Positions 14,628 through 17,464 of a stretch of 64,000 nucleotides of DNA are shown here, piece by piece. Source of the DNA: Peribolospora baueri (Eukaryota). Position numbers and translations under genes: made by a program. Under the pieces are notes generated by a model. That model saw only the letters and a list, made by a program, of their open reading frames with translations, did no database searches and had not been told where the DNA came from. Where the stretch lies: contig JAMDHS010000010.1 in the NCBI GenBank assembly GCA_029717555.1, positions 124,001-188,000 on the forward strand, in the 5' to 3' direction. Position 1 is the stretch's first letter; the number at the start of each line of letters is the position of its first letter.

Positions 14628-15470
14628 TCAACTCCATTTGTCCACGCTCTTGATCCCCTCACTGACGGCTTGACTGCATAGCTCGCGGGGAAGGATGAGG
14701 CGCGTGGCGGTCTTTCTCCCGTCCAATCGGTTGCAGAAACGGAAGACGGCGACGAGGTGACACCCCATCGCGACCGGATGCGTGAAATATTTGGCTCGGC
14801 CTCGATTCGGGAGACGCTTCGACGATGCACCAGAATGTCGCGGGTGGTGAGCATCTTCTTTTTGGTGTACTTGACGAGCTTAGCGGTCTCGTCGATGATC
14901 TGCTCTAACATGTCGATGTCTTACCAGCTCGAAAGGCACGGCGACGATCGAGATGGTCGAACCGTCACAGCGAGAGGCGGGACGGCAAAGCAGGACTAAT
15001 TGACGATTGACAAGGCCTGAGAAGAGGTGCGGGAGGCGGTCGACGAGGTGAGAGCACAGGGACGGGGTAAGCGGTTCGCGGGGGTGGGGCGACTAGCAAT
15101 GTTCGAACAACGGGTTGCGGTGCATTACTCGCCATGGCATTGATGCTGTGGTCGGCGTGCACTTGTTTGAGGAGCCTGCGGATATACATACTGCTTGAAG
15201 CGGCGACATCGCAGCTATGAGGGAACAGAAGGGGAAGCGTGAGCTCGAGTCTGGAGGCGCCTTCTCCTTACACGAGCTACGATCTGCTCCGGTTACCGAC
15301 TGACAAGTGAAGTGACTTGCGTCACTTCATGCGCCACTTAGTCGTCGACGACGATGGGGGCGCGACGGACGATTTGGCGAACCGGACGAGGCCCTTGCCG
15401 GCATGGGGGCGTGACTGCGAGGAGGGATGGCCGGAGCTCTTGCGGTTGACGGCACTTTTTTTTTTGCCAT
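14628..15470 (-). pseudogene. Highly divergent histone H2B-like gene, probably degenerate
   Basis: Collinear H2B-fold pieces YIRRLLKQVHADHSINAM|ALSIVN...IDMLEQIIDETAKLVKYTKKKMLTTRDIL|TATRLILPRELCSQAVSEGIKSVDKWS*, compared with canonical [66 protein letters not shown]. The basic N-tail frame is interrupted by an A10 run (15456-15465) and TGA (15324-15322). Confidence 0.8.
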
Positions 15471-15819
15471 GGTTTTGATGCGGCTGAAAGCGAGATTTGG
15501 CGTGATTCGCTGGCTTGGAGGTGAGGAGGTCTTGAGTAGAGGCGGGTGCAAGTAATCGCCGCATTTCTCTTCTCCTTGTATTTTATGTCATTTGCGTCCC
15601 TTTGCTACGGCTCCCAGCTCCGCAACCTGCCTGCGTCCGTCCTTCCATCCTCCCTCGGCGAGTTCCCAACGATGACGCTGGGCGACGCCGTCGACGGGTC
15701 TACCTCGCGTCCACCCATCGCTCCGAGCAGTTGTCGACGTGCGCACAAGTGATGTAGAGTTTCCAGTGGTCCGACGCCGGCCGCACACGGAATGCTTTCT
15801 TCCCTCTTTTCTTCTTCTC

Positions 15820-16167
15820 TTGTCGAGTGGCAAGGTCCCCCGCGGTCCGTGCGTCGGTTCTACGTCTAAGTCGGTCCGAAGCGGTGATTCCCGTTTGTCG
15901 AGCCTGAGCTAGGTTTCAGCTTCGGCGATGAACAGCGTTTCCTCGCTGGAGGCAAGCTGAGTCTACTTCTAGCGTAGCCTTTACGACAACGGCACGCCGG
16001 CGACGTTCGTTGTGCTCGACTCGAAAGAAGGAGGCCGCTCTATGGCAAGCAAGAAAGAGAAGACACAGGACGATGGTCCTCGGCACCTGCTTCGACGCGG
16101 AAAGCGAGGGCGAGCACCAAAGCTGGCTGACCGATGTTCCCTGTCCGAAGTCGTTCTGGACACATAG
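15820..16167 (+). pseudogene. Possible heavily decayed histone H2A-like remnant, divergent from the H2B-like gene
   Basis: Short H2A-like fragments in the correct order but in shifting frames: STSKSVRSG/IPVCR, EQRFLAGG, VYF, PRHLL, EGEHQSWLTDV. Position is head-to-head with the H2B-like gene. Weak and could be chance. Confidence 0.3.
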
Positions 16168-16326
16168 TGTTGGATTATGAGCCGAGATTCGTGACGAGAA
16201 CAACCCGCTGCCCTGTTGTATGCGTACATGTAACGGTCCTTCTGGGCAGAAAAGCGATAGAAATGAGAGGAAGCAAGAGGAAAATGAAACAAGGAAGGAA
16301 GAAAGCCCGATTCTCCCTCTGGAGTG

Positions 16327-17464
16327 CTAGCCCAGCCCGCCCCAGACGCCGCGGATCCTACGTGCGAGCTGGATGTCTCGCTGCATAATCGTCACCCGCT
16401 TCGCATGGATGGCGCACAGGTTGCTGTAAGAGAGGCGGACGGGAAAACGCCGGATCGGAGGACGGGCGGGTAGAGCAACCGAGACGGGAAAATTGACCGG
16501 GTCGAGGATAGACGGAAGGACAGTCGACATATCAGCAAATGTCCAATCCGAAAGATACAGCTTGCTCCGGTTCTCGCGTGACGGAGGACAAGGGGAAAAC
16601 AGCAGACGGGCCGTTTACTCACGCGTCTTCGAACAAATGTACCAGGTACGCCTCAGTGGCCTCCTGCAAAGCGAGGATGGCGCTGCTCTGCCATCGCAGG
16701 CCTGGTTCGCTGGTGTTGTAGGACGAGGTGATGAAGGCTGCGGCTACTTCTCGGACCTGCCCCGCGAAAGTCGAGAATATCGGCGAGCCGGCGAAGAGAA
16801 ATCCAAAACCCGTAAGCGAGGATAAATGCGTACGCCCTCCGGCCATCAGCGAGCCAAGGCGACGGCGACGACGAGGGAGCCTGCGGGTTCGCCTACTCAC
16901 CACCCTAGCAAAAGGAAGCTTCTGAATGAGCAAGTCCGTGCTCTTCTGGTACTTCCGAATCTCCCGCAGGGCGACCGTTCCGGGACGGTACCGGCGGGGT
17001 TTGCTGGGGGAGATGGGATCGCCGGCTGCAGACGACCAAAGACATCGGGAGAAGGTCAGAGGTGTGAGCCCACAGCTCCTTGTACAGTCGTTTCACGTCC
17101 TCGAAGAACAGGTTCCCATCCATGGCAGGCAGGGAGGGACCTTGACCGGTCAGCGTGAAAATAAATGCTCACGTCTATTCATCCCCGGGGGGGGCCTCTT
17201 GCCCCCCGTAGTCGACCTCCCTGTCCTACCAGCAGTCGTCGTCCCCCCGGTCCGTCCCGCAGGTGCTGCCCGTCCAACATCCGCCGCTCCAGTTCGCCTA
17301 GCATCCGTCGGTCTCCGCACTGCCGCTGCAGAAGTAGAAGCCTGTCCCTGCGGACGCGCTTGTCCCTGCGGACGCGCTCCACCAGCTGCTGCCGCTCCTC
17401 CCCGCGACGAGGAAGGTCCGCCTGGCGGTCGACGTGGTGAGCTGGCGTGGGAGAGGCGCGCCAT
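16327..17464 (-). CDS. CSE4: Centromeric histone H3 variant (CENP-A/Cse4), 4 exons
   Basis: About 105-aa divergent Arg/Gly/Ala-rich tail, then [109 protein letters not shown]. Long loop 1, LRWQ instead of LRFQ and the non-canonical C-terminus are CenH3 hallmarks. Confidence 0.93.

Follow-up and report, generated by a model that had tools for sequence, protein, structure and literature searches.

The 64,000-nucleotide stretch of Peribolospora baueri DNA analysed here (GenBank assembly GCA_029717555.1, contig JAMDHS010000010.1, positions 124,001 to 188,000 of the forward strand; referred to as the window, in whose own numbering all positions are given) contains a gene for the centromeric variant of histone H3 (CenH3) and, beside it, a locus that resembles a gene for histone H2B. 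This raises the question of whether the H2B-like locus is a specialised histone gene coupled to its centromeric neighbour, a former gene of this kind, or a decaying copy of the ordinary H2B gene. The locus runs on the minus strand from an ATG at 15470 to a TGA at 14630-14628, 857 bp downstream of the stop codon of the CenH3 gene and on the same strand. The most probable answer, held here with considerable though not complete confidence, is that it is the pseudogene of an H2B paralogue that was functional for a long time and has died recently, placed in tandem to an ordinary CenH3 gene.

The origin of the locus from an H2B gene can be read from four pieces of its translation (23 + 8 + 29 + 27 residues), which together give 87 residues and contain all four H2B helices in order. 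Aligned with residues 34-120 of canonical H2B, represented by animal-type and plant-type sequences, these pieces fill 87 of 87 columns without a gap, and both the order of the elements (alpha1-L1-alpha2-L2-alpha3-alphaC) and the length of 87 columns are those of the canonical protein, as are the retained signatures LKQVH, RLILP.EL and AVSEG. What distinguishes the locus from canonical H2B is that it is not an intact gene and that only 41 of the 87 residues are identical, whereas canonical H2Bs agree with one another at 73-83 of the 87. Searches of the PDB chains with phmmer, performed piece by piece, assign the parts to the same family: 41 of 42 matches of the alpha1 piece are H2B, as are 8 of 10 for the alpha2-alpha3 piece and all 60 listed for the alpha3-alphaC piece (the best 60 of 174), the last with a best single-copy E value of 0.001. 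A first-pass annotation of this DNA had described an H2B-fold gene, far more divergent than ordinary H2B, about 0.85 kb from the CenH3 stop and decaying in this strain; both the divergence and the distance agree with the values given above, and the decay is confirmed by the stops, the frame clash and the out-of-frame start described below.

The locus is divided into four exons by three introns, all of which keep GT..AG borders. Exon 1 (15272-15470, minus strand, as all parts of the locus) corresponds in translation to the N-terminal tail and has a run of ten A (15465-15456) after the ATG. It is followed by intron 1 (15215-15271, 57 nt, GTAAGG...ATAG), whose phase-2 donor fits a phase-2 acceptor, and by exon 2 (15129-15214), which encodes alpha1 and loop 1 (..SSSMYIRRLLKQVHADHSINAMA), aligns with canonical H2B residues 34-56 and ends in phase 1. 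Intron 2 (15017-15128, 112 nt, GTAATG...CTCAG) has a phase-1 donor and leads to exon 3 (14831-15016), which encodes alpha2, loop 2 and the start of alpha3 (ALSIVN*SC ... DMLEQIIDETAKLVKYTKKKMLTTRDIL) and is collinear with canonical residues 56-92. Intron 3 (14712-14830, 119 nt, GTGCAT...AAAG, phase 0) joins ..TTRDIL to TATRLILP.. with exactly the spacing of canonical H2B, and exon 4 (14628-14711) supplies alpha3 and alphaC (TATRLILPRELCSQAVSEGIKSVDKWS) together with the TGA; 16 of its 27 residues are identical to the canonical protein. An alternative exon-1 donor at 15325 was considered and dropped; with the GTAAGG donor at 15271, intron 1 has its 57 nt and, in the sister organism introduced below, the frame is open from the ATG. 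With its introns and flanks retained, the locus is an unprocessed pseudogene.

In this genome (organism A), no spliced reading of the locus yields an H2B protein. The frame opened by the ATG at 15470 meets a TGA (15329-15327) after 47 codons, and the tail is read in another frame, the one in phase with intron 1, so that the start codon lies out of frame with it. The tail frame itself is interrupted twice within exon 1, by a TGA (15324-15322) and a TAG (15279-15277). Exons 2 and 3 clash by 1 nt, as the donor of intron 2 is in phase 1 and the H2B-like frame of exon 3 is in phase 0; when the current signals are spliced, the reading drops the H2B frame after ..AMA and runs to a stop. Beside the clash, 7 nt occur twice in tandem almost without change (15011-15005 and 15004-14998); a slippage duplication of these 7 nt would have caused the clash. 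Further downstream, the alpha2 frame of exon 3 contains an in-frame TAG (14998-14996) and an in-frame TAA (14923-14921), the latter brought in by a 73-nt patch. Enumeration of the GT..AG combinations over all GT sites of the locus produced none that restores the frame. At every lesion, the contigs of run X1 show 0 differences from the window, although this run may be the source sample itself and not an independent one.

A sister organism (organism B; runs X3 and X4, with the locus on one contig each), about 2-4% diverged from organism A, provides a view of the same locus along a second line of descent. The 73-nt patch (14917-14989, minus strand), which lies in the alpha2 coding sequence and represents a net gain of 72 nt, has no counterpart at this place in organism B, where position 14907 is joined to 14990 in the contigs of both runs. 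The patch is a copy of sequence from another locus: it is present once within the window, and its positions 14917-14988 are matched by pieces of other contigs with 0-2 differences, plus loose ends. At the source locus, the copy in organism B shows 0 differences and that in this organism's own contigs shows two. The flanks, visible as loose ends, suggest that the patch derives from an unrelated gene, of which it would be the 5' end with the first codons. In its form, the patch looks like a templated fill-in insertion. The contigs of organism B also locate the start of alpha2 at 15016-14990 (ALSIVN*SC), which runs there directly into ..DMLEQIIDE.., and thereby rule out a 7-residue deletion or a micro-exon between alpha1 and alpha2, either of which had been considered.

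Organism B also carries a broken copy, through lesions of its own. Its intron 3 is longer by 12 nt, the A-run of its exon 1 is shorter by 3 A, and 71 nt of exon 1 (15358-15428) as well as 162 nt upstream of the locus (15536-15697) are missing. Within its exon 3, one nucleotide is lost at 14907/14908 and one is gained at 14841, 66 nt away; as a result, 22 codons in alpha2 and loop 2 are scrambled, and exon 4 is out of frame. Taken together, A and B differ by at least six insertion or deletion (indel) events over about 840 bp of the locus, at about 2-6% divergence. The two exon-1 stops of organism A are sense codons in organism B (AGG for the TGA and CAG for the TAG), and the 3-nt and 71-nt deletions bring the ATG into frame, so that, once the listed differences are applied, the sequence from the ATG to exon 2 forms one open frame. 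Two indel pairs of organism B cancel in frame (3 + 71 nt in exon 1 and -1/+1 in exon 3), which may be chance or a trace of selection.

Single-nucleotide differences between A and B can be compared as well, with the restriction that those of organism B lying less than about 31 nt from either end of an alignment piece are unlisted (8 of the 22 in the piece 14990-15357 are hidden in this way). According to a codon reading of the listed places, the exons of the fold hold 6 replacement differences and 1 silent difference between A and B. The replacements are Met>Ile, Tyr>Cys, His>Tyr, His>Gln, Thr>Ala and Leu>Gln, of which Tyr>Cys and His>Tyr hit positions that are invariant in the canonical H2B sequences used; exon 4 shows no difference. 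This 6:1 ratio points to relaxed constraint on the locus. Along the region as a whole, the differences amount to 7 in 508 nt (about 1.4%) at 14400-14907, 22 in 368 nt at 14990-15357, 11 in 107 nt at 15429-15535 and 51 in 2003 nt (2.5%) at 15698-17700. Divergence is uneven: it rises to 6-10% in 14990-15535, an interval that holds several large indels and covers the 5' half of the locus and the region upstream of it.

These observations bear directly on whether the locus could still be functional, giving rise to a divergent or truncated protein by odd splicing, an alternative start or read-through of stop codons. The identity of exon 4 in A and B, the clean intron 3 and an upstream ATG that is in frame with the tail (open reading frame (ORF) 15322-15582) would speak for such a product. 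Nevertheless, any start in organism A is cut off from alpha3 by no fewer than four in-frame stops and by one frame clash, the failure of the enumerated GT..AG combinations to restore the frame applies here as well, and the frameshifts of organism B, which are independent of these lesions, fall in the best-conserved half. A surviving function of this kind is considered extremely improbable.

If the locus is instead the pseudogene of a long-functional H2B paralogue, as favoured here, this paralogue would have been maintained as a coding gene through the greater part of its history, would have lost its function around or shortly before the split between A and B, and would now be decaying neutrally with no present function. 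Long coding constraint is suggested because the fold has remained gap-free at about 53% divergence despite the at least six indels gathered in the short interval between A and B: at the neutral A/B indel rate, divergence of this extent would have left the fold full of gaps. The principal features of the locus (retained introns and flanks, and multiple nonsense and frameshift lesions that differ between sister lineages) are shared with unprocessed histone pseudogenes in general, from which it departs in that its parent appears to have been a diverged paralogue and not a recent canonical copy.

The opposite explanation for the divergence is that the locus is a duplicate of the canonical H2A-H2B pair that never specialised and has drifted neutrally since its arrival, in which case all of the divergence would be decay. 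The many lesions and the predominance of replacement over silent A/B differences (6 to 1) are what such a duplicate would show, and an H2A-type motif in divergent position, discussed below, as well as the absence of an orthologous protein in two libraries, can be counted in its favour. Such a history is difficult to reconcile with 87 gap-free columns at 47% identity and intact GT..AG borders when at least six indel events separate A from B. It is also at odds with the search of contigs of the same genome, in which the locus finds nothing at least 80% identical at the DNA level except the 73-nt patch, whereas the CenH3 gene picks up its H3 paralogue there (74 bp with 10 differences). Finally, the putative H2A half is far more eroded than the H2B half, which, if the locus began as a copied pair, fits selection on the H2B half only. 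Neutral drift from the outset is for these reasons regarded as unlikely.

Several points nonetheless weigh against the pseudogene of a long-functional paralogue, whether against its descent, its history or its death. The pieces of the locus score only 11-13 bits each against the Pfam Histone family (PF00125), below the 26.4-bit cut-off, a result attributed to fragmentation, each piece being short and the frames differing from piece to piece. The long functional history is read from the argument on indels and is to that extent only probable. In the reconstruction, splicing leaves organism B with an uninterrupted frame that begins at the ATG and extends through exon 3, a better state of preservation than would be expected of a long-dead gene. 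The TAG at 14998-14996 and the intron-2 acceptor fall in the zone in which differences of organism B are unlisted, and these lesions may be either shared between A and B or peculiar to A. Finally, an unusual transcript or a read-through product of the locus may conceivably exist.

A separate matter is whether the H2B copy ever had an H2A partner. Fungal H2A and H2B genes are usually arranged head to head, and the first-pass annotation had reported H2A-like fragments on the opposite strand of the gap between the two histone loci, proposing from them a variant H2A/H2B pair. The trace in question is the nine-codon motif KAG*PMFPV (16119-16145, plus strand), with an in-frame TGA at 16128-16130, which points away from the start of the H2B-derived locus and lies about 650 bp upstream of it. 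The motif recalls KAG..FPVGR, which we take to be the N-terminal signature of H2A. The pattern [KR]AG-x(1-3)-FPV has 1 match in the six frames of the window, where 0.047 would be expected, while the expectation for the gap is about 3e-4; both figures apply to a motif chosen post hoc. Beyond this motif, the plus strand of the gap (15480-16423) gave matches to 0 Pfam families on 11 ORFs and 3 frames read through stops, and an Atlas search of it returned no usable match. In phmmer searches of the PDB chains, which include many H2A entries, the interval 15978-16388 (plus strand) found no H2A and two weak unrelated matches (E 2.2 and 4.5), and 15973-16167 (plus strand) found no match.

Space is a further constraint: the distance between the CenH3 stop and a possible start of H2A (about 16046) is about 280 bp, in which no complete H2A gene can fit. 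The locus thus resembles divergent fungal H2A-H2B pairs in having an H2A-type motif at about 650 bp on the other strand, and differs from them in that no H2A fold is detectable and the space is curtailed by the 3' end of the CenH3 gene. Homology of the supposed fragments to H2A could not be substantiated, and a variant H2A partner is likewise not sustained by a nine-codon motif with an in-frame stop; KAG*PMFPV remains a hint of an H2A relic and no more. If the locus was copied from a head-to-head H2A-H2B pair, the H2A half would have been truncated and eroded to this single motif.

The same evidence decides on the larger proposal of the first-pass annotation, according to which a variant H2A/H2B pair linked to CenH3 would have formed a specialised set for centromeric or stage-specific nucleosomes. 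Such a set would explain the presence of an H2B paralogue in tandem at 857 bp from CenH3, its strong and yet in-frame divergence, and an H2A-like motif at the expected place and in the expected orientation. Against it stand the lack of H2A homology in Pfam, PDB phmmer and Atlas searches and of room for an H2A gene, the death of the H2B copy in both organisms seen and, among the listed matches of the full-text literature searches, the absence of any paper describing such a set in fungi. Adjacency is the sole link to CenH3, and the functional coupling proposed from it is unsupported; a CenH3-linked nucleosome set is accordingly rated as very unlikely, and the position of the copy beside CenH3 may carry no meaning.

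The CenH3 gene itself is intact and ordinary for the CenH3 family. It runs on the minus strand from an ATG at 17464 to a TAG at 16329-16327 in four exons (17464-17173, 17025-16901, 16756-16623 and 16423-16327), whose spliced frame is open and encodes 215 residues; the three introns (147, 144 and 199 nt) all have GT..AG borders. The Pfam Histone family is matched by two of its exon ORFs with 75.9 and 39 bits, the best PDB match is Cnp1 of S. pombe (E 2e-25), with H3 behind at about 2e-21, and many of the named fungal proteins among the library matches listed are annotated as cse4 or CenH3. Compared with H3, CenH3 proteins are defined by an extended loop 1 and by divergence of the N-terminal tail. 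Aligned with the H3 part of library protein P0003, the product carries 8 additional residues in loop 1, and its N-terminal tail, about 100 residues long, matches the H3 tail in a short local stretch only. The product has an H3-type histone fold with closest similarity to centromeric H3, and would as such be predicted to localise to centromeres. Within exon 1, an 18-nt tandem repeat (17340-17375; 2 copies, 94% identical) encodes a repeated hexapeptide of the N-terminal tail. Intron 1 is shorter by 6 nt in organism B, at 17136, and the single A/B difference listed in exon 4 (16360) is silent.

The region is flanked on one side by a gene with a Pterin_4a domain (ORF 9558-10568, plus strand) and on the other by a cytidine deaminase exon (18610-18753, plus strand), which is followed by a prenyltransferase gene (20134-22711, plus strand). 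An intact CenH3 gene and the gene order PCD-CSE4-CDD1-RAM1, both named in the first-pass annotation, were recovered: the former in the open four-exon frame with its Pfam Histone and Cnp1 matches, the latter as Pterin_4a, CenH3, cytidine deaminase and prenyltransferase. Scans of 9000-24000 returned no tRNA and no Rfam match. The intervals 10600-14630 and 17465-18606 gave no Pfam match in six read-through frames each, and therefore no further histone relics are seen there. The first of these spaces (10600-14628, about 4 kb) is without Pfam-detectable coding sequence and is unusually empty for a gene-dense window.

Protein searches returned no closer relative of the H2B-derived locus. In a word-index search, the exon-3 ORF gave 16 candidates, none of them at E<=10, and the alpha1 region gave no candidate with three common words. 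The exon-4 peptide (31 residues), compared by HMMER with 1.84 billion representatives, had 7 matches, none closer than canonical H2B; 6 of these are duplicated or fused models of canonical H2B and 1 is an unrelated repeat protein. The CenH3 ORF, used as a control, had 7528 matches, and none of the 120 listed exceeded 57% identity, which indicates that the proteomes of close relatives lie outside the library and makes these negative results on orthologues weak.

Among histone families, H2B has the fewest known variants, and we know of no named fungal one; among protists, the H2B.V of trypanosomes is a lineage-specific variant. Other lineage-specific H2B variants are described for the mammalian germline (PMC8857922) and for plants, as HTB proteins (PMC7410336). 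As far as these accounts go, the locus resembles the germline, plant and protist variants in its strong divergence with the fold kept and in a turnover that includes loss, and differs from them in belonging to a fungal-type genome and in being dead in both organisms seen. The passages of the histone nomenclature paper (PMC3380720) reached by term search name no fungal H2B variant, and neither such a variant nor a CenH3-linked H2A/H2B set appeared among the listed matches of the full-text literature searches.

For annotation, the consequence is that labels such as 'variant H2B' or 'CenH3-linked histone cluster' are to be avoided here, as the locus is a pseudogene, and its interest grows only if relatives carry an intact, expressed H2B copy. 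A more far-reaching scenario, which at present has little probability, is that the ancestor of A and B had a working, fast-evolving H2B variant (about 47% identity in the fold) beside CenH3, that it was lost twice, independently and recently, and that some relatives may keep an intact, specialised copy. If this were true, the variant itself would be a rarity among fungi, and the role of the intact copies could be centromeric or tied to meiosis or the spore stage. That the fold came through about 50% divergence without a gap is a hint of a specialised H2B formerly maintained in a fungal lineage.

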